DNA from: Candidatus Uhrbacteria bacterium CG10_big_fil_rev_8_21_14_0_10_48_11
Lineage (GTDB): Bacteria > Patescibacteriota > Patescibacteriia > GWA2-46-9
DNA: 64,000 nt
Reading direction: 5' to 3'
NCBI GenBank assembly: GCA_002793855.1
Contig: PFET01000001.1
Span: 19,520-83,519 of the forward strand
In this document: piece after piece, positions 5,768-26,420 of the stretch
Numbering within the stretch: the stretch's first letter is position 1
How the letters are laid out: each line of letters begins with the position of its first letter
The notes under the pieces: generated by a model
Database searches by the model: none
The model's input: the letters and a program-made list of their open reading frames with translations, nothing else
What the model was told of the DNA's origin: nothing
Translations under genes and position numbers: made by a program

Positions 5768-5782
5768 ATAGTTACCTCCTTA

Positions 5783-6499
5783 TTACCGCTGCTGCGAATC
5801 ACTTCTTGCAATCACAACCGCCCAAACGCTTAAAGCTCCAGCTTCAAATAGAACTCGTCCTGCTTCTTTTGGCGTAGAACCTGTAGTAACAATGTCATCA
5901 ACCAAAACACAATGTCTTCCTTGCACTTCTGCCGGGCGGCTACAGACAAACGCATTTCGTACATTATGAGCACGCTCTGCGGTGCGTAATCCGTATTGAG
6001 GAGCGGTATGCCGATCGCGCCGGAGTGCCGAACAGAGCGAAACACTATATTGCGCGCCAAGCTTCTTTGTCAGAGCTTCAGCTTGATTAAATCACCGCTT
6101 ACGAAAGCGACACCGGCTTAGCGGTATAGGAACCAGTACCGAACTTTCTTTTGCAAAAAATATTGGCAGCTCGGTGTTAGCGAAGCATTTCCCAAGGTAT
6201 TGACCCAGCTCCTCGGCTGGTCCGTACTTCCATGTGCGAATGAGATTACGCCATAACCATTCATCGTAAGTTGCTCTAACGAACAGGCCATTAAGCCGAC
6301 GCGGCTTTTGGCATTGATCGCAGGTTTTGCCGTAGGCACTTGGCAATAGGCAGTAGGCACAGCGTTGGATAGGTTCTACTGGTCGCTTTGAAGAGCATAA
6401 TGGGCATACCCATTCACCCTCGATACCGCAACCGATACAGAACACAGGAAAGAGCACTCTCGTTAATTCTTCAACCGCGCGTGACAGCAACGTACGCAC
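5783..6499 (-). pseudogene. comFC: competence protein ComFC (phosphoribosyltransferase family) with a single in-frame TGA
   Basis: N-terminal Zn finger (CIGCG..CPLC..CAYC..CDQC), then PIPLSRCRFRKR-[TGA at 6092-6094]-FNQAEALTKKLGAQ.., then the PRTase motif HCVLVDDIVTTGSTPKEAGRVL. The TGA falls exactly where ComF proteins have the conserved Gly of R-x-R-G-F-N-Q. The frame is otherwise continuous to TAA at 5783-5785. Confidence 0.7.
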
Positions 6500-6510
6500 G
6501 GAACGTTACG

Positions 6511-7104
6511 CTACTTGGTTTCGTCGAAAAAACCGTCCACCAACCAGTTGTCACCCTGGCGAACCAGATCAACCCTTACGGTAGCATTCTCTACTTTTGC
6601 TGCATCACTACCAACAACGATGGTACGCTGAATACTTAACCGAACCGTTGCCTTGTTATCCCCTTCTTGCACAAGATGCGCACTGAGAACACGAGTGATT
6701 TCTGACGCAAAACCGTCTTTATACGTAGTGCGTAGTTGTGGTAAATAAGTACCCGTTGCCCATGACGAAAAACTATCTGTAAGTAGAGGTGCTAGTTCTA
6801 CAATTCCGGCGAAACCTTCATCGGTAGAGAACGTCCCAAATCGTTCTGTAAACAGACGCGCTAACCGCGTTGCGCTTGTTTCTGCGGTAACCGTAACTGG
6901 CGCCACAGGCGTTACTGTCCCGTCCGCTGCGTCACCCTGCTGGTTACTGTTGGTGTTTCCGATATTGGCAGCTGGTTTACTGCCACCAGATTGACCGCCA
7001 TACCACCACAACCCACCACCAACTGCTGCTATCAGCACAACTACAAGAACGGTGATAGCGATAATTTTTTTTCTATCCATAAAAATCGCGTTAATTAACA
7101 TCAT
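6511..7104 (-). CDS. bitopic membrane protein, possibly VirB8-like T4SS component
   Basis: N-terminal TM (IIAITVLVVVLIAAVGGGLWWY), a Gly/Ser/Asn-rich linker, and a ~120 aa C-terminal domain. It overlaps the VirB4 gene by 14 nt, which suggests co-translation. The VirB8 assignment rests on topology and context only. Confidence 0.4.
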   Translation of the reverse strand: MMLINAIFMDRKKIIAITVLVVVLIAAVGGGLWWYGGQSGGSKPAANIGNTNSNQQGDAADGTVTPVAPVTVTAETSATRLARLFTERFGTFSTDEGFAGIVELAPLLTDSFSSWATGTYLPQLRTTYKDGFASEITRVLSAHLVQEGDNKATVRLSIQRTIVVGSDAAKVENATVRVDLVRQGDNWLVDGFFDETK

Positions 7105-8965
7105 CTAAACCTTGCACCGCCGCCGTATCATCGCCACCGACTTGCTCCTTTGCCGCTTCCATTTCAAGTAGCTGACGCGGATCGGTGGTTATTAGTTGAT
7201 CTTCGGTGTAGGAAGCCACCACCTTAATGGCAGCGTGCTTTGGACCGGCAAAGAAAATACCCTCGCCAACGCTTCCCTCGAGTAGCAGGTACTTCTCACC
7301 TTCGGTCAAAAGGAAAGTTTTTTGGATAAGGTCGATAGCGGCCGGTGATTGCTTTAAGAGAAGTTGCATTGCCGAGTTGTTGACGACCGCTTGACCGTAA
7401 GGTGAGCCAAGAAAGTCGTTAACGTCCTGAGAAATAGTAGTAAGTCCGAGATAGTACTTCCGTGCACGTTTAGCAAGCGCAAAAATGAACTTAGCGCTGT
7501 CTTCGTGCTGCATCATAATCCATGCCTCCTCAATAATGAGGATGCGCTTCTTGCGTTCGCTTCTGACCAAATTCCAAATATTATTGATGATGGTGTACAT
7601 GGCAATCGGCCGGAGTTCATCCTCAAGATCGCGAATTGAAAACACGACCAACTGGCTGTCAGTAATGACGTTGGTTGGGCTATTGAGAAGTCCGGCAAAC
7701 GTACCGCGGGTGTATTTCTGTAGTCGTGCAACCAAATCTTTTGTCCCCTGCATACCCTCAAGCACATCCTCGAGATCAGCTAACACCGGCGGCTCGACGT
7801 TTATTAAGTCAGCGTCTGCGGTGATATCTTTCTTGGCGTACGTTTCAAGTAATGCCCGGTCAAGCAGAGAGTCTTCTTCGCTAGTAAGCCGCCCAAGCAT
7901 AATGCGCAGTAACCCTTTTAAGGTAATAACGGCGCTTCTAATAATGTCCCCCGTTTGCACATCTTCACCGATGCCTTTGGGTAAATCAAAAGGATTAACT
8001 TTGCTTTCGCTCGAAAGCGATATGTTGAGGTACGTACCGCCAACGGCTTCTGAGAGGTGCTCGTATTCTTTCTCGGGGTCAATGACGATAATGTCCACGC
8101 CCATCATAAGGGACCGCAAGACCTCGAGCTTTACGGTATAGCTCTTACCAGCACCAGAAGTGGCGAACACCACCGTGTTGGCATTCTGTAGTGAAAACCG
8201 ATCGAAGAGAATCAAGCTATTATTGTGCCGGTTGATGCCGTACAAAATACCATTGTCGCTCGTCAGCTCTGAGGATACAAAAGGAAAAGCGGACGAGATG
8301 GGTGACGAATTCATGTTAAACGTAATCTGTAGCTCATCTACGCCGAGCGGCACGGTAGAAATGAAACCCTGCTCCGCCTGGTAGAGTACCTTGCGCGCAT
8401 AGACCAGTTTGGTTCCCAGCAGCTGAATGATGTCATCCGTTGCGGTATTGAGATGCTCTAGCGAATCTGCGTAGATGGTAATGTAAAGCCCGAACTGGAA
8501 AAACTTTTCCACTCCCTGTGTCAAATCGTCACGTAATCGCTCAATGTCATGAAGCGCCGTTTCTTTAATCGGATCGCGTGGTGCTCCCTTCTCGTGGTCG
8601 GCAACAATCTCTGCCTCAAGCGCACCAACCTTATTTTTTAGCTGCTTTAAAATAACCGCCGCGTCTACTGGGTAGACGTAGAGCGAGAGGTCAATGGTGC
8701 CGCTAATGTTAATAAGGGGCGCAAACCAACCGACAGAAATATAACGAGGATAATCGGTAACAAAGATAGTTCTAACAAATTGGTCGTTCAGTTTTATATA
8801 CGAGGCCTCAATTTCAAGAGCCGACGGCGCGACAAGATCACGCAACTTAATGGTACCGGCTCGATACGCTTCAGCGGCGGCAAGTACTTCCTTCCCCTCT
8901 TTAGGGCTTAATGCTTTTTCCTCGACCGTTTTGGGTTGCTTCTTTTTTTTGTTAAAGCCAATCAT
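7091..8965 (-). CDS. VirB4/TrbE-family T4SS ATPase, C-terminal (ATPase) portion
   Basis: Walker A VFATSGAGKSYTVK, IIVIDPEKEYEHL, and Walker B-like hydrophobic stretches followed by EEAW. The overall layout matches Gram-positive/CPR VirB4 homologues such as the PrgJ/TcpF type. Confidence 0.8.
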   Translation of the reverse strand: MIGFNKKKKQPKTVEEKALSPKEGKEVLAAAEAYRAGTIKLRDLVAPSALEIEASYIKLNDQFVRTIFVTDYPRYISVGWFAPLINISGTIDLSLYVYPVDAAVILKQLKNKVGALEAEIVADHEKGAPRDPIKETALHDIERLRDDLTQGVEKFFQFGLYITIYADSLEHLNTATDDIIQLLGTKLVYARKVLYQAEQGFISTVPLGVDELQITFNMNSSPISSAFPFVSSELTSDNGILYGINRHNNSLILFDRFSLQNANTVVFATSGAGKSYTVKLEVLRSLMMGVDIIVIDPEKEYEHLSEAVGGTYLNISLSSESKVNPFDLPKGIGEDVQTGDIIRSAVITLKGLLRIMLGRLTSEEDSLLDRALLETYAKKDITADADLINVEPPVLADLEDVLEGMQGTKDLVARLQKYTRGTFAGLLNSPTNVITDSQLVVFSIRDLEDELRPIAMYTIINNIWNLVRSERKKRILIIEEAWIMMQHEDSAKFIFALAKRARKYYLGLTTISQDVNDFLGSPYGQAVVNNSAMQLLLKQSPAAIDLIQKTFLLTEGEKYLLLEGSVGEGIFFAGPKHAAIKVVASYTEDQLITTDPRQLLEMEAAKEQVGGDDTAAVQGLDDVN

Positions 8966-9660
8966 TGCATTGATGAAGTTATGCCGGCACTGTCAATTTG
9001 CAGCAGTTTAAGGTCGACTAGCGGCGCCAGTTTTGCCAGCTCGGGGTTATAGGTTGCGTAGTACAGTTCAACCAAAGACTGCGTGTCCAAAAGTGCGATT
9101 TCCAGACTGAGCGAATTAAGACCGCTCGCGACATGATCGGCGCGCTGCATCAGTTCATGACGATTTCGACGAAAACGATCTTGGCTCAGGTGAATGAGCG
9201 CGTCAGGATGAAGCACTTCGCGCATGCGTTGGAAAAAAGTTTTCTTCCTATCCGCGCCCGGGTTGTAAGGTACAACGACATAGAATCGTTTGTTCATAAT
9301 TTCACCCAGCTCAACCAGTTCACGAATGAACTGCCGGTACTGCGTCGTTTGAATACGCAATAGCTCATTGGTCTGCTGCTTCTCAATATCTGCCAAGTGA
9401 TCAAGATAGCCGGCTATATTCAGTCGACGAGACTGCACCACAATCTGTAGAGGAAAATCAATAGAGTTCAAAAAACTCATGTAGCCCTGAATAATTGCTT
9501 GCTGCTCGTCATCAGATTTTAGGGCAAAGTTGATAGACGAAACCAGCATGACGGCTCGCAGAGTCCCATCTTTCAACACAGCAACATCCTCTCGGATTTC
9601 TGAAATTTCCAAGAGGTGCTGGGTACTTATGGTTGTTTTGTTCGCTTTTCTTTTTGCCAC
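8962..9660 (-). CDS. VirB4 N-terminal domain encoded as a separate ORF (split VirB4)
   Basis: IREDVAVLKDGTLRAVMLVSSINFALKSDDEQQ matches the conserved N-terminal VirB4 segment. Its TGA overlaps the ATG of the downstream ATPase ORF (ATGA), and an A8 homopolymer lies immediately after the junction. Confidence 0.6.
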   Translation of the reverse strand: MAKRKANKTTISTQHLLEISEIREDVAVLKDGTLRAVMLVSSINFALKSDDEQQAIIQGYMSFLNSIDFPLQIVVQSRRLNIAGYLDHLADIEKQQTNELLRIQTTQYRQFIRELVELGEIMNKRFYVVVPYNPGADRKKTFFQRMREVLHPDALIHLSQDRFRRNRHELMQRADHVASGLNSLSLEIALLDTQSLVELYYATYNPELAKLAPLVDLKLLQIDSAGITSSMQ

Positions 9661-9669
9661 AAAAGCCCG

Positions 9670-10116
9670 TTAGCTGTTCCCTTTTTCTGCGTTGTCACCA
9701 TGGTAAATACCACCAGTATCAACAACGAGAGAAAGCTCAGCGAGTCGCGAGATAGTTGGTGGAGGGCGGCGAGTGGTAACTTTTGAAACACTTGCATCAT
9801 TAATGATCTCGGGAGCCATTTGATCTTGCTTGCCGTATTCTTTTCTCCACACACGTAATCGCGGACGCTGTAAGGTTTGTATTAAATTTAACAGAAAATA
9901 GTGAAAGGGTCGACCATTGATGCGTACAAAAGCGAGTACGATGCCCGATACTACAAATAAGATGGTCAAAATAATGAATAATGAAGTGTCGGCTAGTCGA
10001 TAGCTTAAAAAGACCAAAAAACCAACAACAAGCATAATCAAAAATTGCCGCACTGCAATTGGGCCCAAAATGTGGGACTCTTCGTCAATAAACTGCGGGA
10101 CGACAAATTGCTGCAT
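9670..10116 (-). CDS. small two-TM membrane protein, VirB3-like by size, topology and context
   Basis: 148 aa with two hydrophobic helices (LIMLVVGFLVFLSY, LFIILTILFVVSGIVLAFV), positioned directly upstream of the VirB4 ORFs. Confidence 0.4.
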   Translation of the reverse strand: MQQFVVPQFIDEESHILGPIAVRQFLIMLVVGFLVFLSYRLADTSLFIILTILFVVSGIVLAFVRINGRPFHYFLLNLIQTLQRPRLRVWRKEYGKQDQMAPEIINDASVSKVTTRRPPPTISRLAELSLVVDTGGIYHGDNAEKGNS

Positions 10117-10117
10117 A

Positions 10118-10828
10118 CTATGCCCTTATGGTGCGATTAAAATTTATTAAGGCGAGAAACTCTTCCTTGGTAAATGCCTTTGTCTCTTGTAGCACCGCCT
10201 CAATAGATTTCCCGGTATTCAGAGCGGCGACAATAGTCGTGAGGTGTGCTTGGTACAGTGGGCTCTGCCGCCAAGCACGCAGCGCCGAGGCTGACTGATC
10301 GAAAGATTCTTCACTTAACACCTGAAATTTTTGAGTAAGGCGATCAATCGCTTTTTCAGTAGTTGCGCCAAGATGATGAAATTCGTCTATCGATAAAAAA
10401 CGTAGCTCATCAAGCGGGCCGGATACCACTGGGCGCTGAACATCCACCATATGCCGAACCGCAGGCAAGGTAAACTTACTAGAAACATCCATTATGTTCT
10501 CTGTTATATTTTTTTTGAGCTGTGCGCTTGTTTCCACTTCTGTAGGTACTGACTTTGGAGCGACGGCCTGAGTAAAAGCAAGTGCTCGATCTTTACCGTG
10601 CTCTTGCTCAACTAAACCAGAAGCTGTCTTGTGGTCCTCCAACCGCTGATGAGGGCGATCCTTGCTAACTTGCTCTACTGCTTTTTCTGCTGGTTTATTA
10701 TTTGCCGGTACGTTCTTTTTTGTTTGTACGTATGGCTGCCAAGTATTATCTCGCCAGACTTGCCATTCACCATCTTTTCGACGAACAAGAGTGTCGTTTT
10801 GTAGGCTCATAGCGTTGTATCCATCCAT
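10118..10828 (-). CDS. hypothetical protein (T4SS cluster)
   Basis: Intact 236 aa ORF, hydrophilic, ending in TAG. No motif recognised. Confidence 0.45.
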   Translation of the reverse strand: MDGYNAMSLQNDTLVRRKDGEWQVWRDNTWQPYVQTKKNVPANNKPAEKAVEQVSKDRPHQRLEDHKTASGLVEQEHGKDRALAFTQAVAPKSVPTEVETSAQLKKNITENIMDVSSKFTLPAVRHMVDVQRPVVSGPLDELRFLSIDEFHHLGATTEKAIDRLTQKFQVLSEESFDQSASALRAWRQSPLYQAHLTTIVAALNTGKSIEAVLQETKAFTKEEFLALINFNRTIRA

Positions 10829-12264
10829 TGGTATGACTGCGTAGCTTCATCGAAATAGGCAAGGTAGGGAGTAGCGCTATCTTTTTTTCTAGCAAGTGCA
10901 GTTAATTCTGCTGCGAGGTGGGCGGCTTCGGAAATTTGCATATGCATATGATCCTCAAGCAGCATACGCAGAAAATTACGAAGGTGTTCAGGATAATTTA
11001 AGCCCTCCTGTAATTGTCTCAACATGGTCGCTTTTTCAAGTTTACGATAGCGTGCCGCCAAAAGATTTTTAAACCTTTGATCAGCAAAGATAAAGCTTTC
11101 TAGCTTACCCTGCTCTGCTAATGCATACAATACAGCAGCAACAGGGGCTTGCCGTGACACGTTAAAAGCTGTAAGCAAAGTATCATACAGCTGTTTTGTA
11201 TTGATTTGATTGTTCCGTATTCTTCTTATCTCTTTCCGTACCTCCGCACTTTCAAATAGTGAAGATGTCGCTTTCTCTTCCGCGGCAAGTGCACTCCTCT
11301 CTTTTTGGTGCAACGTACTCTGTTTAAGAACCGTTGAAGTACGTGCGTGTACGTGTTCCGTATCAATCTTATTCTCTTCTTGACCTGCAACCTCACTGCC
11401 TAAGGGAGCTTTACGTAAATCGACCCATTCGTCATTCTCGTCATTTGGCCCACTAGGCGGTTGCTCATCTTCTGGCGTAATTAGTCCAATTTTTTTAAAT
11501 TGGTTAATAAGCCGCTCGACTCGAGGATCAACTTGCTGCACCTGTCCATCCTTAACGGTTACCTCTTTGCCGTCTATGTTTGTGCTAAGTGGTTCCTCCA
11601 GGCCATCCACACTAAACGTGGAACGCTTAAGTCGTTCATATAGATGCAAAAGAAAATGTAATTTTTCTTTTTCTTGCGCAGATATTTTTTTTGTATTGAT
11701 AGAAGAAGATAAATACTCAATTTGCTTAATTGATTCAGCTGGCTGGGCATCCACGTGGCGAACATAGTCACGCAACCAATTCGCAACTGTGGGTAAAACC
11801 TCTTTCTCTTGGATTATCAGTTTATTGCTAGTAATAGTTTCTTGATTCTCCTCAAGAGCATATCTAAGTTTTGCTTTAAACGCGTCTCGTTCGTCATGGG
11901 GATAACGAATAATTAAAATCGCGCGCAGCTGCTCCCACACGTCCAAGTTGGCTGACATGTCCAGAGCAAAAGAAAAATAGGTAGCAAAGAGCCGAATAAT
12001 TTCTTCTTCGGATAACGAACTTAAGGCAAGCCAACTAGCACGTGTAACCAACTCTTTATAGCCATCAATCAATGCGAGAGGCAACAAGTTATTTATCCCT
12101 TTTTCTTCTAGCGCTGGTTTTATATTTTTTATTAACCACTGCGCTTCCTCTACTGCATTAAATTTAAGCACGTCACTAACAAAATGACCCTGCATCTTCC
12201 TGAGTAAGCTTGGATCGTTTAACCAACGGTAGTCAGTATTTACTTGTTTTTTTTCATTAGTCAT
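10807..12264 (-). CDS. hypothetical protein (T4SS cluster)
   Basis: Intact 485 aa ORF with no NTP-binding motif. It overlaps the downstream ORF by 22 nt. Confidence 0.45.
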   Translation of the reverse strand: MTNEKKQVNTDYRWLNDPSLLRKMQGHFVSDVLKFNAVEEAQWLIKNIKPALEEKGINNLLPLALIDGYKELVTRASWLALSSLSEEEIIRLFATYFSFALDMSANLDVWEQLRAILIIRYPHDERDAFKAKLRYALEENQETITSNKLIIQEKEVLPTVANWLRDYVRHVDAQPAESIKQIEYLSSSINTKKISAQEKEKLHFLLHLYERLKRSTFSVDGLEEPLSTNIDGKEVTVKDGQVQQVDPRVERLINQFKKIGLITPEDEQPPSGPNDENDEWVDLRKAPLGSEVAGQEENKIDTEHVHARTSTVLKQSTLHQKERSALAAEEKATSSLFESAEVRKEIRRIRNNQINTKQLYDTLLTAFNVSRQAPVAAVLYALAEQGKLESFIFADQRFKNLLAARYRKLEKATMLRQLQEGLNYPEHLRNFLRMLLEDHMHMQISEAAHLAAELTALARKKDSATPYLAYFDEATQSYQWMDTTL

Positions 12265-12267
12265 ACC

Positions 12268-15200
12268 CTACATTAGAGCGATTGCCTGTGCCTGAAGTCC
12301 TGAGTAGCTTGTTCCAACACCGCGTTTCCTGTAAAACCTCCCCATACGATCAATTGCTTCAGCTAAAGTTTCTCCCGTATCTAGGCTGGCCGTTAACATT
12401 CCTCTCCGTTGCATGTCAAATAGTGCCTCTATATCTTCCGACAGCTTCATAATCAAGCTTGGGTTGACTTCTGCCCTACCCAGACGATAAGCAAAATCAT
12501 CCTGAAACCCAGCAAGAGTTAGTTTACCTGATAAATCAAGGTGGAAGTTACCCCGCGCATCCTCATAACCGTAACCAAGACGGTTATGGTTCTGAATAAA
12601 CTTCCTAGAATCTTGTTTTAGGTTTTCAGTTGCAGCAGCTGCAGCCTGCTCTTCTCTTGTTCGATAGTAGTATCGTCCATTCTTCATACCATACATACGT
12701 GACACGTTGTTATGGTTGTGCGCTTCATTAATGTAGGACATCTCGCTCATCAGTTGCATTGAACCCTGTTTGCCAAAAATTTTCTCTAGCCGATCCTTGC
12801 GGAATTTTTCAGCACCCTCAGGACCACTCGGAAGACCGTTGTCTTTATAAATTTCGTTATCATTATAATCTTCCGCCGCTTTTTTCATGAAGGTACTCAC
12901 TTGAAGCATGTTGCCCTCTTGAATGGCACGCTCCAGAAGGTCGCCCAACTCTTCCCACTCCATAGATTCTCTTGGTAGCTTAGATAGTTCTTGCTGCTCA
13001 AGTGCCCGATATACACGGTCGGCATAAAATGTCTGGGGAACGGGTTCGCTTCTTGCAAGATTCTTATCAGAAAATCTTTTTGCTTGCGCTTTTAGCTGTT
13101 TCCTAATCTTTTCAATATCTTCCTCACTATTATCTTGTTGCGCGTAACCTTTTAGTTCGGCTATTCTAAATCTAGCCTCTTTAATTGCATTTTTATTAAG
13201 GTCTCTGTTTGCATCAATTTCTTTCTGCTCCGCCGGCAACTCCTTAGTAGCAATTATTTTCTCTTTCTTTTTTTGTTCTTCCAAATTATTTAAAAGTGAG
13301 CGCTTTAGGCTTTTCAGTTTGCTGGTTTCGTCGGGATCTCCTGCCGCTTCCTCGATGCGCTTATCGACAGCAACGAGCTTGCGTAACAAATCTTCAATGC
13401 GGGCATCGACTTGTTTCTTTTGATCCTCTGTATAACCACCACGCTGTAAATAGGTGAGTTCTTCTTCTTTTTTGGTCTGTTCTTTTTTGTACTCCTCCTT
13501 TGCTAAAGCTTTCAATTTTTCTTTCTCTTCTAGAGTTTCTTTTCCTGTTTCCCCGTAACCCATTGCTTTCATCTGCTCCGCAACCAAATCTTGAAACACT
13601 GGACTATTGCTAACCAAACTATGCCCTTTTTCTTTAGCGATAGACTCAATAAAGCTTTCAGTCTGCTTCTTGTAATCTTCACGCTCGGGACCACTTATGT
13701 TAGCAACTTTTGCTGGTATTAAAATGCCTCTTTCTGCCATTTGGTCCATTACACTTACCGTCCTCCCAGTCTTATCTCCCTTTGCATCACGCTCCTCTTC
13801 GTAAAGAACAGACTTTAACTCGTCTTGCGTCAAATCGTGCCTTTCGGCAACTTCAGCCAGAGAATGCGTCAATTCATTTTCGATAGTCTTACGACGTGTA
13901 CCGAGTTTGGCGCGGCGCTCCTTGGTAGCTTCTTTAACTTCTTTCTCTTCCATGCCACCCGCACGCATACGTGCTTCAAGAGCGCCAAGTCTATTCGCTC
14001 GCTTCTCAAGTGCCTGCGTTGCCTTAGTAATGGCTTGTTCTTCTTTTGCTATTGCTTGCTGAATCTCGTCCTCATCTTTACCTTCCTTCTTCATCTCTAC
14101 CTTCTTCGCCTGCAAACGTTCAACCCGTTCATTGAGTGTGCTGCGATCTTCGGTGAGGCTCGCTCGTTGATCCTGTGTCAAACTCTGAATGATTTCCTCT
14201 TCGGTGCCACCGCCCAGCAAATCAGCTTCAATGGCTGCAATATCTTTTTCTTCCTCGGTAGCATTTTTCATGTCCTCCTGATATGTCTCCATCGCCGGTA
14301 AAACCTCTGGAAGCGCTGCTTGGACGCCCTTAATTTTTCCCTCAGTAAGTTTTTCTGTAGCCGCTCTAGCCGCAAACACGCGGGCTTCTGCTATAAGTTC
14401 TGGTTCACTCCTTATGGCCTCTGCCTCTTTTACTAGCTCCATCGAACGAATTTTGTCTTCCTCCCCTTCTTTGTATGCTTCTTCACTGTATCGTCCTGGA
14501 TCCCGCAGAGTTCTTCCAAAGCGTTGCCTACCAACTTTACCTTTCATGAAAATTTGCAGGAAATCCTCAGTTGCTCCTAATGCCAGTAGCGCCATACCCA
14601 GTCTTCCGCTTTTCGCTTCCATATACTCTTTATAGTTTGCTGTTGCTTTCCGTTGCCCGATAACCTCGTTCTCTCCCCGTCTTCTTGCAAAATACCCTTT
14701 GGTACCACGAATAAGCCGGCGCGGATCAAGACCCCAACCTTTATTTGCGTATAACGTTGACTCGGCAAAAGAGGCTAGGTCTCCAAGTGCATTGAATGGA
14801 GCAAACGCTGTTTTGACACCGGCGCTCGATAGTTTGCCATAGACGGCACCTGCAATTTTGCCAACTGCGCCGCCGGTTTCCATGGCAAAATACAGCGACA
14901 CCATCAGCATAGCGATTGCCATAATAAAACCAGTTAGGTTTGACTGTGCACCCGCCTCTGTTATACCGATATCGGGGAGTAACGGAGACGTTGGCACTCC
15001 ATCAGCAGTCTCGTCAACACTTACATTCTGAACAAAGCCCTTATCCGTAGAAAGCAAGCTTGGCAGCGTCGCAAGTGACAACCATAGAAAAAAGGCCATC
15101 AACGGGCCAACAATGACATACTTTGAAAACATATCCCACCACTGACTGGCATACTTTTGGCCGATAGGTAAAACAGAAAGTACATAAACCATTGGTGAAA

Positions 15201-16014: not shown

Positions 16015-16398
16015 TCAGCTTTTAAGGAGACTTAAGGAGGTATTGATAAAGTCCGATCCTACAGCTGTCGCGACAATAATTACCAATAAAAGAAGCAAAA
16101 ATGGCCAACCAATGGTACTCATAAATGCGGTGACACCTGCTACAATTTCAAGTAATAAAGAAACAACAATCCGTTTCCTGAATTTTTTTTTAATCTGCTC
16201 TTCTACTCCAGAGGTCGCTTTCTTCATACCCTTTCTTGCTCCCTGACCTTTGTCTATGTCTTGTTTGTGATTAGACTCTTGCATTCTGGCGCTTTGCTTG
16301 CTCATACGAAAACGCGCCGCTGACGCTTCTTGTTTGCGGACTTCCTCTTGCTTGCGCGAGAATAAAAGGTTGTCAACGTTTTGTGAAAGCTGTGCCAT
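16015..16398 (-). CDS. small basic protein with a C-terminal ~35 aa hydrophobic hairpin (possible pilin/VirB2-like subunit)
   Basis: 127 aa with a Lys/Gln-rich N-terminus and a C-terminal IVVSLLLEIVAGVTAFMSTIGWPFLLLLLVIIVATAV segment. Confidence 0.35.
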   Translation of the reverse strand: MAQLSQNVDNLLFSRKQEEVRKQEASAARFRMSKQSARMQESNHKQDIDKGQGARKGMKKATSGVEEQIKKKFRKRIVVSLLLEIVAGVTAFMSTIGWPFLLLLLVIIVATAVGSDFINTSLSLLKS

Positions 16399-16404
16399 AG
16401 GTGT

Positions 16405-19400: not shown

Positions 19401-22400
19401 TGCGTGTTACCGTACGGGCTGTCTTACAAGCGAGCCAACTACCACACTCTCGGCTCGGTTGTACCTTGACCAGCAAATTAGAATCGCGCTGAAACTGACA
19501 ATCGCTATCAGCGGTACATGAAAGGCCAACCGTACCTCGACAAATGCCAGAAGTTCCCGTGGCTTGATCGGCACCAACGCAAGAATATTCTGTTCTAGTC
19601 GTACCATTAGGAGTCTTTGTATCCCCTAACGGGCTCATATCAGCGTCGTAGGTATTGACGATAGGCGACTTGTAACTCGTTTGGAAACTAGCAAGGACGC
19701 AGTTGGCATTATTGACCGTACCGGCACAACTTGCAGTATCAAGCTGATCCACAAGTTCGTAATGAATACTGGCCTCGCGAAGCGACACATTTCTTGTCTT
19801 TACTGCGCCAGTTGCAAATTCACCGCTCACGTTAGATGGCAATAAATCATGAGCTTGTCCGACGCGGACGCTACAATTTTCTACGTCATCAGTATTTTTT
19901 ACGTAGAAGCTTACACTAAACCGATCGAACGAATCTTTCTTTGTAGGTTCAATAAAAGTATACGGCGACCCTTGAATGGATAGTGACGAACCAGGACACT
20001 GGATACCGAGATAAGCATTTGCGGCAAGCGAACCGCTGACAGCTTCCGCTTCTGCTGAAAGTACATAAAGCGTACGCTTGCGCAAAGTTACGTTTGACTG
20101 TTCAAACCCGCCACTGCTAATAGTTAAGGTATTCAGGTTTTGGTTGTAATGATAGGTTGTTGACGGTGAAGCAATCGACGTCCATGATCTTGGTGTTGTG
20201 CCATCAGAAGCAATAAACGAACCATTAATCAGTAGATCCCGAGTACCGTCTGAGCGAGGGTCAACTATTTCTTTGCAACTATTCTGCTGCACGGGGCAAG
20301 TACCAACGTAGCCAGCTATTGGCTCCTGGGCGGTCGAACCAGCAATTTGTACACGAGGTACGGTTGTATTGGTAATAGTACGATTACAGTCAGGACTTGT
20401 CGCGGATGAATCTTTCTTATACCAACCGGAAACTGGACGGTCGGTGTGGTATTCACAGGTTTGATCTCCCGGATCTCTAAAGTAGTAAACACTTCCGGCG
20501 GCATCCTTAAAGGCAGAACACTGCAACTGATCAAGCTTGCAGAGAATAACCCCATAATCATCGGGATTATTTTTAAGGTAAACACTTGACCACGGTGTTG
20601 CGCTATCGCCAAGAGCATCACGAAGAATACGCTGAGCATCACTCGCCGCTAATGTACCTGCGTCAAACTTTGCAACCAGCGAATTATAACCGGCAGCCAA
20701 AAGCTTGCTTCGCAAATCAGGCAAACACGATCCCCCTGCTGCGCACTTCAATGTCTCTAGTGCAAGTGCAGTGTTGGCTTTGATTGACCGGTCAACTTTA
20801 CCCAACGCCTGACAACCCTGCGCTTCTGTCTTGCAAGTTTTTGTCGGATCGTTAACAAGGTAGTCAACCGAATCGGCCGGTACGGTAATAAGGCTATTGT
20901 CTTCAGCGTCATTAAATGACCTCGCAAAAGGCGCGTCACCTCCAACCGTAGTGTTCTGCGTGTCGATGACCGCTTCACAGCCAACAACCTTAGCGTGACA
21001 GGCGGCGCCAAACTGCCAAACGTCTTTGCTTGAGCCGTCACTTACCTGATACTGCTGACAACCAAGGAACGGCTGACGAGCGGCATCGTTAGAGTAACAG
21101 GAAAGCGGTGTACGCCAACTATTCTTGACGAGATAATGAGTGTCGGTAGTTGTTTTGAGCTCTATGTTGTCAATAAATACCTTGCCGGTACCGGATGGCG
21201 TTATTGCTAATGTCGTCACCGCATCGCTAGCACTGACAGCAATACTCACTGGATCACTTTTGATTTGTCGCCATTCACTAGTTAACAACGCATCCGTTAC
21301 CAAGGTACCATTGGTTACCCCGTTACCACTGATGGCGGCGCTGATCGCCGCTGTTGCCGTACCGGTTTGTGTACGTGCCCAGAAAGTAACGACATAAGTT
21401 GCCGGGGCAATTGTACCGGAGGTACCACTGGTGCTGCTACCAGCATTAACGGTAACCGCTTTCTCGGCAACCGCCTCGGTAATCTCGTACGAGTGTCCGC
21501 CAACAACACTAGAAACAGCGCTCAACTGTCCGCCAGACCACTCTGCAGTACCTTTCTCGAACGTATCATTCAATACTGTTCGGTAGCTAGCCGACGTTCC
21601 TCCGCGATACTCACGACAACCAGCAACCGCAGCGCTACACTGTCTACCACCATTTGGTACGGCCTGATAAATACATACTTGAATGCTGGTATTCCACCAA
21701 CCGTTCGAATTAGCACAGTCTTGTTGGTTAGAATCTGTCTTTCGCAACGGATGGCAAGAATCGGTAACGCTCACCGTTTTTGAAAGCAACCGGTAAGAGA
21801 TTTGACCTGTTTCGTTATAGAACTGTCGACAATCGGGGTTTGACTGATAAGTATTCTCGTTACAGGTTCGCCACGCTGTATCGCCTGCGTTACTGGTATC
21901 GCTGCATGAAGCGCTTATCCCATCGCTACTCCAATTGATGTGCGTGCAGGGAGCCGCCAAGTCGTTACCGGTGCTGCCTGCAGTCGTGCTGAATCCGGAA
22001 GGATTCGTCGCCTCTGTTTTCTTCAGTTGGAATACGCGCAACTGGAAGCCAGTTTCGTCAGACCCTTCCCATGTGTAGAACGTACCACTGTCAGTTCCTC
22101 CTGGCTTTTGGCAAAACTGTACCTGCTGATAGTACTCACGCGCCTCACCGCCGGATGTTTCCTTGTCGAGATTTGTAAACTCATCACAACCCACCGCAGC
22201 CGCAGGACAACTTTGACCTGTTGCAGGAATGAGATCGACAAACTTTGGTTTCTCGAAAAAGGTTGCCGTCTGAGTATAAGTATCAAAACCTACACACTCT
22301 GTCGGACAACTCTGTCCGCTTACAGCCGTTACTGTTGCTGTCCCGTTTGCAGGGGTGTAGCTCCGGCAACCAACCTCCGCCGGTAAACAATATCGCGCAT

Positions 22401-25140
22401 ACGGCGTACAAGCCGCTTGATCGGCATTTGCATCGGGCGCATCTGTTGCCAAACCGTTTGGACGACAACTGCCAACATCGCCGGTCAAGGATTGATAACT
22501 AGCATCTGTTTTTGAACGATAATCAGGTGCCCGTTTTAAACGGGTCAACGAGGCACCATACGTTGTAAAAGTTGTTGGTGTTTGCCCGACGGTCAGCTCA
22601 ACAGCATCAAAGTCAACACCGGCAGATAACTGTAAGGTAAGGTTGAGACTGTCGGGTAAGGTTGTATCGTTCGCCGCAAAAGTCTTCGTTACTGAGTAGC
22701 GCGTCCAAGTATCAATAAGCGGCTGATCCAGACTGGTAAATGAGGGAGAGGCGTCGCTTCCGACCAAGCTGTACGCAATACGTCCATCGCCACTAAGGGA
22801 TTGCTTGGCGTAAAAACTAAAACCAATGGTTTGCCCAGCAAGTGGTCCGGTAAGCACCGCCTTTTGTGTAAGACTTGCGTTGTCCACATTGCTATGCAAG
22901 TAGCGCGTGCCATTAAACGGAGTGTCGGTTCCTATCCCAACCGCTGTACTATCATAGAGCCACCCTTTTGCCGAGCTGTCAGCTTCTGAAACAACCGTCT
23001 CAAAACTGGGGTTACGCAATAGGTTACTCTGTGGAGCAGTTGCTACCTTGTTACTCGTTCTGATAAAGGCACGGCAACCGTCATCTTTTTGGTCACACCC
23101 TTTCACCTGACCATTCAGATACAGCACGTCCGCATCCGCGGTACTCCACTTATTGTTACCAAGATCTTTTGTACTATAGAGTTTGCAACCAACCGAACCG
23201 GCATCGCAGCCGTTGAAATCAACAGTATTTAATAAATAAGAAACAGTAGCGCCAGATTCGGTATTGGAAAGCGTGGTACAACTGGAAAACTGAGGCTGAC
23301 ATTGCGCCTTACCAAAATCCCATACGCGCTTCTCTTCTGTGCAATAGCCATAGAACTGACAGTTGCCATTTGCATCGCGCTGTACGCAGGTTTGTTCATC
23401 TGCGCAGTAGTTTGCATCACGCGTAACCACAACCGCTGGCGGCACATCACCCGGCGAAACATACTGACCATCGCCGTCGATGTCAGTACCCTTCGTTACA
23501 GTTTGCGATATAACTTTTGGACCGGGTCCTTGTAACTTACAAAAGGCATCCGGCGGCACCAACGTCCAATTTGGATCGACAAGGTGGTAGAAAGGGTTTG
23601 GTTTTTCTGTGGTCGGAACCGTATCGTAAGCGGTCACCAACTGACGAAGCGTAATTCGTTCTTGACCAAAATATTGAATGTACCGCGCGGCAAGCTCCCA
23701 TCCAACCGGTACGATACGATACTTTCTCAAGATCAAGATAGATCGGTACGGAACACCGTCAATGTAACTCGGCTCAATTGGCTGTGGGTTCCAACCGACA
23801 AAACCAAAAGGCGCGTCGCCGTTGATGAGTCCTTGGTCAATCGCCTCTTTAACGGTTAGCCGTTGAGAAATTGCAGTCCGGAAATTGTCATTAATGACAC
23901 AATCTGTCGGTCCTGGGTTGGTATCATTGTCGCAACTAACCAGTTTCGAAAGAATATCGTACCGACCGGGGGTGCTAAAATTCGGTCGAATGTCTTGCGC
24001 TAATCGAGCGCGCGCACCTAATACTCCTTCACCTTGTGCCTGCGCCTCGTAATTACTTAGATTGGCATTACTGTGCCCACCACTACTGCCACCGGTGAAG
24101 CCTTGGGACAGCAAATTTCTAAGCAGTCCGCCGGCAAGCGCCTTAGTAAAGGTATCAACGGCATCAGCAATAACATTGCCAGTAAACGATAGCTCCCCTT
24201 GCTGTGTTGTGCCAAAAACTTCTTGCCATACCACGCGTACCGCTGTACCAGGCAACGTGATGATATCGCTTGTCCCCTTGGTAACATTTGAAAATCCGCC
24301 ATTCGTTAGTCGGTCTAGCATTGCGTTCTGTTTCGCTTCCGCTTTTCGCGACAATAAATTTGTTTGTAAGGTTAGCGCAACGCTAAGATCACTCTCTCCT
24401 GGATTAAATGACTCGCTAAAAGTAGGAAGGAAACTCTTGCTGGTAATAAACTGCTCCCAATTATTTTTTAGCGTACTAAAGGTACACTTTGGACGTGATT
24501 GAAAAGTATCGGTAAGTCCCAAATTAATGGCAATTTGAATAGAGGCACTGGGCGCACATAAATTAAGACCTTCCAGAATGCCTCCTGATCCGGCAAGGCC
24601 TGTCGTACCCCCTTGCCACGTACAACCCCCAGCGGGCACATTTGAACCTTGCACACAGGCTTCCAAAGTGTTGACCCCAGGTCGAGATACGAGTGCGCCA
24701 TTACCATTTCGACATTCACAGGTACCCCCTTGTCCGCTGATCATTCCGTCCAAAAAAACACCGGCGGCTTGATCAATGCTATTGGCAAGATATGCTCCCC
24801 ATCCTTCGGTCACAAAAAGGGGCTTTTGCCCGTGACCGCCGCTGGCAATCCATGTTGCGGTATCTTGCGCAATTTGATTGAGTAAAAATTTAACCCCTTG
24901 TCGAAAAGAAAGTGCCGCTGACTCTTTCAAACTTGCGACTAACTTATTCCAACTAAAATCTTCTAAGTGACTTTTTTGATCTTGTATATATGCCTTAATA
25001 TCGTAGGTTGGCACAGAATCAAGAAGCGGTGCTTGTGCTAAGACTTGCTGTATCTGTAAGCCAAAAACAAAAGATAATGCCAACAGCACTGACAAGATAT
25101 ACCGTTTCTTTATTTTTTTTATTTTGGTGTTCTCGCTCAT
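16405..25140 (-). CDS. giant (2911 aa) secreted Cys-rich multidomain protein; putative glycan-binding surface adhesin
   Basis: N-terminal signal/TM (ILSVLLALSFVFGLQIQQVLA). At least four modules start with the CBM4/9-like signature (LLRNPSFETV.., VLNDTFEKGTAEW.., LLINGSFIASDG.., VNANFEIPSTQGN..). Many C-x(4-6)-GC repeats are present. A C-terminal PKD-like domain is indicated by YIVDWGDGSRTV..HSYSYDD..GIYQVTPRVQILDNWG. Confidence 0.85.
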   Translation of the reverse strand: MSENTKIKKIKKRYILSVLLALSFVFGLQIQQVLAQAPLLDSVPTYDIKAYIQDQKSHLEDFSWNKLVASLKESAALSFRQGVKFLLNQIAQDTATWIASGGHGQKPLFVTEGWGAYLANSIDQAAGVFLDGMISGQGGTCECRNGNGALVSRPGVNTLEACVQGSNVPAGGCTWQGGTTGLAGSGGILEGLNLCAPSASIQIAINLGLTDTFQSRPKCTFSTLKNNWEQFITSKSFLPTFSESFNPGESDLSVALTLQTNLLSRKAEAKQNAMLDRLTNGGFSNVTKGTSDIITLPGTAVRVVWQEVFGTTQQGELSFTGNVIADAVDTFTKALAGGLLRNLLSQGFTGGSSGGHSNANLSNYEAQAQGEGVLGARARLAQDIRPNFSTPGRYDILSKLVSCDNDTNPGPTDCVINDNFRTAISQRLTVKEAIDQGLINGDAPFGFVGWNPQPIEPSYIDGVPYRSILILRKYRIVPVGWELAARYIQYFGQERITLRQLVTAYDTVPTTEKPNPFYHLVDPNWTLVPPDAFCKLQGPGPKVISQTVTKGTDIDGDGQYVSPGDVPPAVVVTRDANYCADEQTCVQRDANGNCQFYGYCTEEKRVWDFGKAQCQPQFSSCTTLSNTESGATVSYLLNTVDFNGCDAGSVGCKLYSTKDLGNNKWSTADADVLYLNGQVKGCDQKDDGCRAFIRTSNKVATAPQSNLLRNPSFETVVSEADSSAKGWLYDSTAVGIGTDTPFNGTRYLHSNVDNASLTQKAVLTGPLAGQTIGFSFYAKQSLSGDGRIAYSLVGSDASPSFTSLDQPLIDTWTRYSVTKTFAANDTTLPDSLNLTLQLSAGVDFDAVELTVGQTPTTFTTYGASLTRLKRAPDYRSKTDASYQSLTGDVGSCRPNGLATDAPDANADQAACTPYARYCLPAEVGCRSYTPANGTATVTAVSGQSCPTECVGFDTYTQTATFFEKPKFVDLIPATGQSCPAAAVGCDEFTNLDKETSGGEAREYYQQVQFCQKPGGTDSGTFYTWEGSDETGFQLRVFQLKKTEATNPSGFSTTAGSTGNDLAAPCTHINWSSDGISASCSDTSNAGDTAWRTCNENTYQSNPDCRQFYNETGQISYRLLSKTVSVTDSCHPLRKTDSNQQDCANSNGWWNTSIQVCIYQAVPNGGRQCSAAVAGCREYRGGTSASYRTVLNDTFEKGTAEWSGGQLSAVSSVVGGHSYEITEAVAEKAVTVNAGSSTSGTSGTIAPATYVVTFWARTQTGTATAAISAAISGNGVTNGTLVTDALLTSEWRQIKSDPVSIAVSASDAVTTLAITPSGTGKVFIDNIELKTTTDTHYLVKNSWRTPLSCYSNDAARQPFLGCQQYQVSDGSSKDVWQFGAACHAKVVGCEAVIDTQNTTVGGDAPFARSFNDAEDNSLITVPADSVDYLVNDPTKTCKTEAQGCQALGKVDRSIKANTALALETLKCAAGGSCLPDLRSKLLAAGYNSLVAKFDAGTLAASDAQRILRDALGDSATPWSSVYLKNNPDDYGVILCKLDQLQCSAFKDAAGSVYYFRDPGDQTCEYHTDRPVSGWYKKDSSATSPDCNRTITNTTVPRVQIAGSTAQEPIAGYVGTCPVQQNSCKEIVDPRSDGTRDLLINGSFIASDGTTPRSWTSIASPSTTYHYNQNLNTLTISSGGFEQSNVTLRKRTLYVLSAEAEAVSGSLAANAYLGIQCPGSSLSIQGSPYTFIEPTKKDSFDRFSVSFYVKNTDDVENCSVRVGQAHDLLPSNVSGEFATGAVKTRNVSLREASIHYELVDQLDTASCAGTVNNANCVLASFQTSYKSPIVNTYDADMSPLGDTKTPNGTTRTEYSCVGADQATGTSGICRGTVGLSCTADSDCQFQRDSNLLVKVQPSRECGSWLACKTARTVTRNSVRRNICLAVEGCEQLDDKGQCIRTTLDEPDKDLTYAASTVDQLKDRSGYSSVGFNWGNVCSNNSSTSCTTDADCGSGKCTPRLLQGYISPGYMEQVGQLALLVNANFEIPSTQGNAVSWVGWGNGQNFRVINNPVSAQSVGILYPREGRAFLEVNANHKVPDVPQFIDDSLAPNLANYSGTINVAGEADYILSADVNTVHFSGKSAGIRVFQYKTNGDLVPCNTAGTCKFLALLDTGAGFDWTTKVDKFTTDEDTRYIRLQFGWFAKGGSTENSSGNWYVDDIKLQPALEYRRNEYRYCSNNVTKLCQVDDDCGAGNTCDILHVDPDFPNVDYENGIETLDYSYASQSCRLYPEETSLSCQYNDDNGLRHRGKLGYCLTPDPQNSSNCLQWWPVDNIIGEDTEQDHVGYQGPIPLYQCLDVVDGWATLLHSSVGASTVPDYTGGKKSPAVPTDTFSHFKIDKHGQQTEYNGGKIDKTEKVVFDLYRNADSTTEGYAVGGLVDKPGKCDANYHAVDSATPLIHAGCEIRVWMENNKGGDGDDKYKIYVSKDLSSLYYINEWCESAACPPSLGNRPSPDQANNGWAEMWADVAWAVDSNGNRIPGPFRYLIIESLSSDDYITPLGLWARPSFSCNAVMQTVGSAGQNRAYASRVTPGSQASIKVGRGTSYESSAEDNYEYKVTTDSPPFGSVVPPFPADDPLAWDSTTFVGVQPLFAEPSASSTSTSQARAGGPYSCHPINSLLIGTYKPLFSSQCSSSGAMLNEIQESTYADGLTKAVKVLQQLFVQSYGVWEWQSTPDGYRYVETGSKELIVPTEQCGSGPTLNVRVGSEICGVVPAIPVVELSGAANTITKVGSVTLSFTAIANPEQEPIVRYIVDWGDGSRTVQTGLKFASHPSDQNPISLVHSYSYDDVARCVKEGSCAKTTTIVNGIYQVTPRVQILDNWGWCNGAYASTGNSNPLFGQTGYNELNTDGRGDCSASHAAAWQSSGDAITISQ

Positions 25141-25146
25141 AATTGC

Positions 25147-25887
25147 CTATTGCTGGGCGTTAAGCTGATCGAGCGTCTGCTGATAGAGCTTTAACAAGTC
25201 AGCGTCTGAGAGCTTACTAAGCGTTGCTTCGTCGACACCGTTTTGTCGCAAGAGATCTCGAATTTGACTTGGTGAAAGATTTTGTAACTCTTTTGGTGTC
25301 TGGGTAGAGCCTGAAGCTGCCGTCCCACTTTGTGCAGCCAAGGCCTGTTGGTAGCTAGCGACAATTTGCTCATCGGTTAAACCTGCAATTTCTTGTTCGG
25401 ACGCACCTGCCTGACGTAGCGCTGTCCGAAGTTCGTCTGGAGTTGGCGTTGCGGTGGTGCCGGGAATTGATGGTAGCGACGGTGCTGTTGTAGTTTGATT
25501 GGTTCCAGCGGTGTCTGTCGAACCGATAAGCGAGCAATTTTGACCAGTTGGGCAATTAGGATCCGTCCCATTGGCAATTTCTTGCCCGTCACTTATCCCG
25601 TCAGAGTCAGAATCGGCCAAATAGGGGCTGGTGTGATAAATGTTTATTTCGTCACTGTCATAGAGACCGTCTCCGTCAGTGTCTACTTTGGCAACAGCGG
25701 AATTGTCGTTAGAAGCAAAAAGATCAGTCGCTGTAGTTTTGACCGCGTAAGGTCCATAAACTGTCCGGCGGAGACTAATGCCTCCTAAAACAATCGCACT
25801 TGCGCCTATAATAAAAACAGTCGCCAAAAGAAGGCCTCTGGTACGCCCTGAAATTTGACCGGTAGTAGTACTCTTAAAATCAAACAT
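25147..25887 (-). CDS. secreted protein with thrombospondin type-3-like Ca-binding repeats
   Basis: N-terminal TM, then DTDGDGLYDSDE and DSDSDGISDGQEIANGTDPNCP (DxDxDG repeats). A C-terminal tandem of helical motifs (LTDEQIVASYQQAL / LSDADLLKLYQQTL) follows. Confidence 0.6.
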   Translation of the reverse strand: MFDFKSTTTGQISGRTRGLLLATVFIIGASAIVLGGISLRRTVYGPYAVKTTATDLFASNDNSAVAKVDTDGDGLYDSDEINIYHTSPYLADSDSDGISDGQEIANGTDPNCPTGQNCSLIGSTDTAGTNQTTTAPSLPSIPGTTATPTPDELRTALRQAGASEQEIAGLTDEQIVASYQQALAAQSGTAASGSTQTPKELQNLSPSQIRDLLRQNGVDEATLSKLSDADLLKLYQQTLDQLNAQQ

Positions 25888-26030
25888 TGGAGACTAGATA
25901 ATCTCGCGTGTGATAGGTTCTAAAGTTTGTTAATTATAGCAGAGAACGACACGCAAAGTCAAAGAGAATGGCACTAAACCGTTCTCTTTGTATTTTTAAC
26001 CTCTATCGTTCTAAAAATATCTACAAAAAA

Positions 26031-26408
26031 CTAGTACGCCCACCACTTTGTTGCCTGAAATGCCGAACCGGGAACACCAAAACCAATAATCCAACCACCT
26101 GGACGTGGTGTCGGAAGACCGCCGGCTTTTGTTAAAGGGTCGACGGCAACAAAATTCTGCGAACCAAGACCAGAAGTTACTTGGTATGGGGATACATATC
26201 CCCAAGGGGTACAAGGATTGGCTGGCGGTTCAGTACACGTTACAATGGCGTCAACGCGCTGATAAAAAGGGACACCATACGCTTGACCGTTCGCCACCTT
26301 TACCCCAACCGCAACAACCACAACGAGCACAATGAGTGCCCCGACCGATACCCGGTTTAACTTTTGCTCCCATTTTTTAGTCAAAATATTCATATTAAAA
26401 TGATACAA
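26031..26408 (-). CDS. small exported/membrane-anchored hypothetical protein
   Basis: 125 aa with an N-terminal hydrophobic segment (VSVGALIVLVVVVAVGV), heading the minus-strand cluster. Confidence 0.4.
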   Translation of the reverse strand: MYHFNMNILTKKWEQKLNRVSVGALIVLVVVVAVGVKVANGQAYGVPFYQRVDAIVTCTEPPANPCTPWGYVSPYQVTSGLGSQNFVAVDPLTKAGGLPTPRPGGWIIGFGVPGSAFQATKWWAY

Positions 26409-26420
26409 CAGAATAAACCC

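Follow-up and report, generated by a model that had tools for sequence, protein, structure and literature searches.

Patescibacteria type IV secretion systems and the Uhrbacteria locus

Patescibacteria carry a type IV secretion system (T4SS) whose VirB4 ATPases form a monophyletic clade related to the monoderm conjugation class MPF-FATA (Quinonero-Coronel 2025, PMC12102498). In that survey, TrsD, which has remote homology to the VirB4 N-terminus, was the most frequent partner (1,664 cases beside virB4), and PrgI-type VirB3 proteins, VirB6 and VirB2-like pilins also belonged to the system. Almost no relaxases were found, homologues of the type IV coupling protein (T4CP) were common in the genomes and usually far from virB4, and no adhesin such as PrgB was detected. 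VirB8 homologues occurred almost only in the class ABY1, which includes Uhrbacteria (Table S1 of the survey); ABY1 also showed linkage to comF, recG and radA, and KsgA was among the families common near virB4. [quoted passage not shown] This window is the reference for all coordinates below except where a related locus is named, and the scans of open reading frames (ORFs) for absent genes covered its whole length. The gene string at 6511-25887 on the minus strand very probably encodes a Patescibacteria T4SS. It is likely the ABY1-class version of this chromosomal system, derived from the monoderm MPF-FATA conjugation machinery with loss of the DNA-processing parts. At its head stand the genes for a protein with TSP3 repeats and for a giant Cys-rich secreted protein; judged from sequence, the chances that the giant protein is a working part of the T4SS appear about even.

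The window shares with the described system the core of VirB4, TrsD, PrgI/VirB3 and VirB6 genes, the chromosomal location, a VirB2-like pilin gene nearby, the lack of relaxase and coupling protein genes beside virB4, the linkage to comF, recG, radA and KsgA, and a putative VirB8 homologue next to VirB4. The core cluster is thus one more example of that system. The papers on Patescibacteria T4SSs describe neither a giant exported protein nor a TSP3 protein as part of the locus, and the class-wide module of both genes at the locus head, upstream of the channel genes, seems new, as no published description of it was found.

The T4SS genes of Southlakia epibionticum (SEML1_0006-0019) were essential for epibiotic growth, and protein export or another non-conjugative role was proposed (Wang 2023, PMC10633639), a view also taken in a 2025 review (PMC12857230). 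The initial annotation of the window had likewise favored a non-conjugative host-contact apparatus of an episymbiotic bacterium within the candidate phyla radiation, the same conclusion as published for this T4SS lineage (PMC12102498, PMC10633639), and we infer this function for the window system. Essentiality of the T4SS has been shown only in Saccharibacteria. The saccharibacterial locus has a pilin array and peptidase/lysozyme genes by virB4, whereas in the window one pilin gene lies 7 kb off and no hydrolase was found.

The MPF-FATA systems, such as pCF10 prg/pcf, the C. difficile CD1110-family and pGO1 trs, share with the window a CD1110-family VirB4, a PrgI-family VirB3, a TrsD-type protein (as in pGO1) and the lack of an outer-membrane core. 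The window differs from them in having no relaxase, T4CP, VirB1-type hydrolase or LPXTG adhesin and in not lying on a mobile element; Gram-positive systems have no VirB2-like pilin, whereas the window encodes one. The order of genes in pCF10 places the surface-protein genes prgA/B/C upstream of the channel genes prgD...L. The window layout, with a putative surface-adhesion module before the channel genes, resembles this order by analogy.

For comparison, two mutually independent sets of related loci were used. Sample 1 comprised 80 genome loci anchored on VirB6, nearly all from ABY1-type metagenome-assembled genomes (MAGs), and sample 2 comprised 46 metagenome loci for which a conserved motif in the giant protein served as the anchor.

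Core genes of the secretion system

The VirB4 protein scored 100.5 bits against Pfam P-loop_TraG and 337.8 bits (cut-off 325) against the NCBIfam family conju_CD1110, aligning with profile positions 177-729 of 752. Its P-loop domain is intact, with a Walker A-type motif ATSGAGKS and a Walker B-like ILIIEE, and the protein was 64-81% identical to full-length matches in related ABY1 loci. The preceding ORF covers CD1110 positions 2-136 and VirB4_plasma positions 95-233, the N-terminal part missing from VirB4, in agreement with the initial annotation, in which VirB4 was described as split; it also matches TrsD, weakly, and its stop codon overlaps the VirB4 start codon (ATGA). TrsD is a separate ORF of ~226 aa in 48 related loci, and its orthologues in loci L081 and L083 carry the TraC-like domain PF26593. 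A frameshift pseudogene was rejected because this two-gene state is conserved in relatives; by these sequence matches, the split VirB4 is a conserved TrsD+VirB4 gene pair.

The product of the gene before trsD matched Pfam PrgI (PF12666) at 34.4 bits (gathering score 27) and has at least two transmembrane (TM) segments between residues 20 and 64, which established it as the VirB3-like small membrane protein that had been proposed. The last protein of the string consists of an N-terminal TM helix, a linker and a domain of ~115 aa. A low-confidence model from the single sequence (predicted local distance difference test score, pLDDT, 54) gave an NTF2-like fold that also matched VirB8-family structures. 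The search for homologous proteins returned only the query itself, and the profile search of the family in PDB returned nothing. VirB8, VirB4 and TrsD genes are adjacent in two other Patescibacteria genomes (Table S3 of PMC12102498), and the order in the window is the same. The earlier VirB8-like assignment therefore agrees with the modeled fold, architecture and position, which are consistent with it but not specific.

The VirB6-like protein gave no direct Pfam match. TrbL/VirB6 was matched by 12 of 30 aligned members of its family (best E 5.8e-6), and some homologues carry PF04610 or PF19590. About seven hydrophobic segments lie in residues 1-380, within a TM domain of residues 1-~400, followed by an 870-aa hydrophilic tail. 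Residues 431-1000 of this tail (~570 aa) are 40% charged and coiled-coil-like, and the C-terminus is a conserved end domain of ~250 aa. The family matches and the charged tail support the earlier description of a VirB6-like protein with a long coiled-coil tail. Among those listed, all VirB6 homologues outside the source genome were 739-2,160 aa long. The extended VirB6 class, e.g. Rickettsiales RvhB6, is defined in a review (PMC12857230) by at least five hydrophobic helices and, C-terminal to them, a large hydrophilic domain, and the window protein has the same architecture. It differs in the makeup of its tail, the charged stretch plus the end domain, and no homology of this tail to other extended VirB6 tails was detected. 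In PDB, the charged stretch matched only coiled-coil proteins, the whole family gave only coiled-coil noise, and no relative of the end domain was detected.

Two soluble proteins without an assigned function, hyp485 and hyp236, were present in 43 and 37 of 53 loci, respectively. Neither had a Pfam or NCBIfam match or a match in PDB by profile search, and the C-terminal ~110 aa of hyp236 are conserved. The two genes overlap by 22 nt in the window and form a single 700-aa ORF in the closest relative (L001:12778-14880). Elsewhere they are mostly two genes, of ~310-450 and 400-550 aa, some with a 5-7 kb insert between them. No published mention was found of the uniformly extended VirB6 or of the two conserved soluble proteins. 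For the small 2-TM protein encoded before VirB6, tblastn found no sequence homologue; in L081 and L083, an ORF of 165-200 aa occupies the same position between the giant gene and VirB6.

Two further genes, overlooked in the initial annotation, lie outside the string. The VirB2-like pilin (T4SS_pilin, PF18895, 27.5 bits against a threshold of 26.6) is encoded on the same strand, 7 kb upstream of the block start and ~24 kb from virB4. Its C-terminal extension of ~120 aa holds most of its 12 cysteines, which is unusual for T4SS pilins. Homologues of the pilin are encoded between the giant gene and VirB6 in L021, L124, L127 and L129. The adjacent gene encodes a DsbA-like protein (Thioredoxin_4, 103 bits; DSBA, 65 bits). 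In 9 related loci a DsbA homologue is encoded after VirB4/VirB8, and in L083 and L084 such homologues border the locus. DsbA is the probable oxidant of the Cys-rich exported proteins.

The giant protein and its TSP3 partner

The giant protein has a signal-type N-terminus, with hydrophobic residues 15-33 followed by VLAQA-P, and contains 92 cysteines, 60 of which are at least 80% conserved in a 36-member alignment with an overall identity of ~30%. Cysteine is absent from the VirB8-like protein, VirB4, TrsD, PrgI, hyp236, hyp485 and the small 2-TM protein, and occurs twice each in VirB6 and the TSP3 protein. Ten hairpin-type C-x6-C motifs, typically '...(V/A)GC-x-x-(Y/F)', were found in the giant protein, three of them directly before a beta-sandwich module. 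Four such modules resembling CBM_4_9 were located at residues ~705-876, 1188-1335, 1636-1800 and 2016-2200. A family hidden Markov model (HMM) of module 1 found the other three at 2e-9, 2e-4 and 1e-4; self-BLAST of the giant protein detected no repeats, so that the modules were visible only with family HMMs. Conservation is lowest in these modules (for module 1, a mean identity of 16-23% to the window protein) and highest (39-53%) in the Cys-rich linkers and in residues 400-650 of the N-terminal region. A variable stretch, residues 2350-2550, precedes a conserved C-terminal region with a WGDG motif.

The model of the N-terminal 660 residues was partly confident, with residues 395-530 above pLDDT 90, and had no fold relative in PDB; a PDB search with the giant protein as a single sequence also returned nothing. 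At E<=1e-30, the family includes at least 1,129 cluster representatives (50% identity); among the 150 members listed, nearly all have lengths of 2,000-3,800 aa. Other members match CBM_4_9 at the position of module 1, most of those listed carry a precomputed PF02018 assignment, and some also carry Laminin_G_3 or dockerin domains. The cysteines, the signal-type segment and the CBM_4_9 match of an orthologue support the description of a Cys-rich, CBM-bearing secreted protein of 2911 aa in the initial annotation. The PKD domain that had also been considered was not detected by Pfam in the window protein at E<=0.1 or in family members P0122, P0133 and P0173 at E<=0.01, with only the conserved WGDG seen.

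The giant protein shares with the CBM_4_9 modules of glycoside hydrolases and cellulosomal proteins a beta-sandwich and an N-x-x-F-E type start, as well as orthologues that exceed the Pfam threshold, some of them with dockerin or Laminin_G_3. It differs from these proteins in lacking a catalytic domain and in setting the modules in a unique Cys-rich scaffold. The CBM_4_9-type homology suggests host glycans as a putative target of the giant protein.

The TSP3 protein scored 37 bits against TSP3_bac (threshold 25) over two bacterial TSP3 Ca-binding repeats, which confirmed the TSP3 assignment of the initial annotation. A TM segment spans residues 19-37, and the C-terminal part holds two helical repeats.

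Conservation of the locus in related genomes

The gene order of the block recurs in related genome and metagenome loci, the comparison for which the initial annotation had called. The recurrent order was KsgA, TSP3, giant, (small ORFs or pilins), VirB6, hyp485, (variable insert), hyp236, PrgI, TrsD, VirB4, VirB8-like, (comF or DsbA) and RadA. Of the 56 loci in sample 1 whose upstream sequence reached at least 9 kb, 46 encoded a giant homologue upstream on the same strand. Among the 53 loci of this sample with enough downstream sequence, PrgI was found in 42, TrsD in 42, VirB4 in 41, the VirB8-like gene in 21, RadA homologues in 24 and comF in 7. All 35 loci of sample 2 with at least 4 kb of downstream sequence had VirB6 on the same strand 0.3-3.4 kb downstream of the giant gene, and all 28 with at least 2.5 kb of upstream sequence had the TSP3 gene directly upstream of the giant gene, with KsgA upstream. 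Independent gene calls gave the same layout in L081 and L083, with TrbL_3, PrgI, TraC-like and P-loop_TraG marks.

Several observations weigh against assigning the giant protein and the TSP3 protein to the T4SS, or against the interpretation of the locus as a whole. KsgA, a housekeeping ribosomal RNA methyltransferase, is as strictly syntenic with the giant gene as VirB6 is (28/28). In ten of the 56 VirB6-anchored loci, no giant homologue was found within 10 kb upstream, even by family HMM. L084 keeps LeuRS, KsgA, TSP3 and giant genes in order, followed by LexA, SecA and SecDF and not by VirB6, and in L005, L022 and L047 the giant gene and VirB6 lie ~6-7 kb apart, with a region weakly similar to LeuRS in the interval. 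The CBM_4_9 (PF02018) score of the window giant was 21.3 bits, below the Pfam threshold of 25.9; its 49%-identical orthologue P0122 exceeded the threshold with 45.9 bits at the same position. Besides the N-terminal hydrophobic segment, no further TM segment or anchor motif was recognized in the giant protein. No SLT, CHAP or M23 domain was found in the cluster ORFs, and no VirB1-type hydrolase in the window. ABY1 is a large class with, to our knowledge, no cultured member. Adjacency of the giant and T4SS genes also does not prove function.

In a different explanation, the TSP3 and giant proteins form an independent cell-surface module, such as a general adhesin or envelope protein, kept beside KsgA by class-wide synteny, and the T4SS works without both. 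The strict linkage to KsgA, the arrangement in L084, the intervening 6-7 kb and the ten T4SS loci without a nearby giant gene are all as expected from such a module. On the other hand, VirB6 lay at most 3.4 kb downstream on the same strand in all 35 giant-anchored loci with at least 4 kb of downstream sequence, the gaps through the block in the window are at most 11 nt with the only strong promoter-like site 5' of the TSP3 gene, four loci have pilin genes interposed between the giant gene and VirB6, and even L084 retains, ~5.5-7 kb upstream of the giant gene, genes for DsbA and for a pilin-SLT fusion. We regard an independent module as unlikely.

The fusion gene of L084 (2751-3770) joins a T4SS pilin domain to an SLT lytic-transglycosylase domain and lies beside a second SLT gene and DsbA. 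This arrangement suggests that VirB1-type activity in some ABY1 genomes may reside in pilin-SLT fusion or SLT genes. Many public MAG records of related loci (L004, L007, L008 and others) are titled 'uncultured Gammaproteobacteria' or 'Planctomycetota'; such records with a Patescibacteria locus are probably mislabelled bins.

Missing mobility genes and chromosomal context

No match to a relaxase, VirD4/TcpA, VirB9, VirB10 or VirB11 was obtained in any ORF scanned across the 64 kb, as the initial annotation had stated, and no relaxase with VirD4 was found just outside the cluster within this range. The block is preceded by KsgA, Sua5, LeuRS and UvrA genes and followed by a comF remnant, three tRNA genes, RecG and RadA, with the 16S rRNA gene, ParB, SMC and TrmD further along.

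An ordinary conjugative or integrative element, with its relaxase and coupling protein outside the annotated coordinates, would be compatible with the best score of VirB4, which was against the conjugative-element family conju_CD1110, with the limitation of the search to 64 kb of the 112 kb contig, and with the frequent T4CP homologues elsewhere in Patescibacteria genomes. However, neither relaxase nor T4CP, and no integrase or repeat boundary, was found near the block in the 64 kb. The only integrase-like ORF of the window belongs to an insertion sequence (IS) ~34 kb from the block, inside a PPDK gene. The G+C content of the block, 0.43-0.49 with the lowest value over the VirB6 gene, is not distinct from that of most of the window (0.46-0.51). 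The flanking LeuRS, KsgA, UvrA, RecG, RadA and tRNA genes and the same chromosomal neighborhood in more than 100 related loci constitute a conserved housekeeping context, because of which the mobile element was rejected; this explanation is extremely improbable and close to refuted.

Another explanation is a T4SS for DNA uptake, like Helicobacter ComB or Sulfolobales Ced, that functions with comF, recG and radA. These three genes lie directly downstream in the window, RadA or comF homologues follow the T4SS in relatives at the frequencies given above, the linkage in ABY1 has been noted (PMC12102498), and VirB4 weakly matches CedB and CedD. The CedB score, however, was only 52.6 bits against a cut-off of 700, a match attributable to the shared ATPase fold. 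VirB9 and VirB10, both of which ComB has, and a CedA-like protein were not detected in the window scans, comF appears frameshifted in the source genome, and the repair roles of RadA and RecG are general ones. Southlakia requires ComEC and type IV pili for competence and survives the loss of ComEC, whereas its T4SS is essential (PMC12857230). Competence is kept as a minority alternative because of the comF/recG/radA linkage, at a low probability.

Organization of the gene string

All ORFs listed in the initial annotation were present on the minus strand at the positions given there; within the block they are spaced by 0-11 nt or overlap by 4-22 nt, in line with the one-strand arrangement of overlapping or abutting genes reported there. 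The packing extends further: the ORFs from 34756 to 6092 (-) are arranged head-to-tail and either overlap slightly or stand no more than 14 nt apart, the sole exception being a gap of 143 nt (25888-26030) 5' of the TSP3 gene. A promoter-like site in this gap (Table 1), a consensus match only, had the top score of both scans (5600-25500 and 25000-35500) and is the only strong one. Such sites were more frequent than in shuffled sequence at 25-35.5 kb and not at 5.6-25.5 kb. Terminator-like sites inside the block showed no excess over shuffled sequence. By its consensus match, the site is a candidate start of the transcription unit. An inverted repeat with a 12-bp stem lies directly upstream of it at 25960-25990; this hairpin may terminate the KsgA unit or act as an operator.

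The block of the initial annotation reached to 26408. Its genes up to 25887 were confirmed, but the ORF at 26031-26408 is probably not part of it, because it lies beyond the gap and because, among 126 related loci (80 from genomes and 46 from metagenomes), only the metagenome locus L087, a close relative, has a homologue. The promoter-like site and the hairpin stand between this ORF and the TSP3 gene.

Table 1. Features of the T4SS locus and associated genes in the 64 kb window
Feature	Position	Strand	Basis or remark
VirB8-like bitopic protein, 197 aa	6511-7104	-	Architecture and position
VirB4 ATPase, 624 aa	7091-8965	-	P-loop_TraG, conju_CD1110
TrsD-like protein (VirB4 N-terminal domain equivalent)	8962-9660	-	VirB4 profiles, weak TrsD match
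PrgI family (VirB3-like) small membrane protein	9670-10116	-	Pfam PrgI
hyp236, soluble, 236 aa, no function assigned	10118-10828	-	Conserved C-terminal part
hyp485, soluble, 485 aa, no function assigned	10807-12264	-	Conserved position
Extended VirB6/TrbL-like polytopic protein, 1,248 aa	12268-16014	-	Family matches to TrbL/VirB6
Small 2-TM protein, 127 aa	16015-16398	-	Charged N-terminus, two C-terminal TM helices
Giant Cys-rich secreted protein, 2,911 aa	16405-25140	-	Signal-type segment, CBM_4_9-like modules
TSP3 Ca-binding membrane-anchored protein, 246 aa	25147-25887	-	Pfam TSP3_bac
Promoter-like site	25933-25962	-	TTGACT, 18 nt, TG-extended TATAAT, 11/12
125-aa TM protein	26031-26408	-	Probably part of the upstream KsgA unit
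VirB2-like T4SS pilin	33225-34004	-	Pfam T4SS_pilin (PF18895)
DsbA-like thiol-disulfide oxidoreductase	34007-34756	-	Pfam Thioredoxin_4, DSBA

Other features of the window

The comF gene at 5783-6499 (-) is broken: the zinc-ribbon N-terminal part is the ORF 6092-6499, and the phosphoribosyltransferase motif VLVDDIVTTGST is found at 5783-5926 in a different frame. This state reflects one of three causes, a frameshift, a pseudogene or an assembly error. The IS-like element, in the region 58079-62314, consists of an ORF with an rve integrase domain (59849-60730) and a further ORF (58918-59802), with a G+C content down to 0.38, and is flanked by fragments of a gene for PPDK/PEP-utilising enzyme (58079-58693 and 61042-61374). 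The 16S rRNA gene at 44551-46169 (-) is 1,619 nt long against a model of 1,533 positions, with ~86 extra nt, and no 23S gene adjoins it within the window. The ORF at 50094-50441 encodes only the N-terminal domain of an asparaginase and that at 39468-40064 just the C-terminal portion of a periplasmic binding protein; these shortened ORFs are hints of gene decay or assembly errors.

Proposed mechanism and implications

On the interpretation of the locus as an ABY1 version of the Patescibacteria T4SS, we infer that the giant/TSP3 module is the host-binding part. The giant protein would be exported by Sec and its ~90 cysteines oxidized by DsbA. The conserved Cys-rich hairpin linkers would then form a rigid scaffold presenting the four less-conserved CBM_4_9-type modules, which may bind polysaccharide on the host cell envelope, and the TSP3 protein may help to anchor or stabilize the giant protein via calcium. 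VirB6, PrgI and the VirB8-like protein would constitute the membrane channel and TrsD with VirB4 would power it, with the pilin as a possible conduit. Such a machine would move proteins or other macromolecules, not relaxase-bound DNA, between epibiont and host.

A further-reaching proposal makes the giant and TSP3 proteins an integral extracellular part of the T4SS, a disulfide-stapled, envelope-spanning docking structure that determines host recognition and replaces the adhesins and outer core of other T4SSs. We offer this only tentatively, as possible but doubtful. By description, the giant genes of Omnitrophota (West-Roberts 2023 preprint, 10.1101/2023.11.21.568195) are similar in that a very large exported protein is conserved by a secretion or pilus system in a small-celled bacterium with suspected host dependence. 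They differ in belonging to another phylum, in encoding proteins of up to tens of thousands of residues and in having mainly a type II/pilus-like system as the neighbor.

With the Patescibacteria T4SS, a system of this type was for the first time shown to be essential for growth of its bearer (Saccharibacteria). A giant exported protein that carries lectin-type modules, is conserved class-wide and is encoded at the head of the T4SS operon offers a concrete candidate for the host-contact component that is missing, and its variable modules could serve as expressed probes for finding hosts. If true, the docking structure would represent a new architectural class of T4SS and would give a large uncultured class its first candidate determinant of host specificity.

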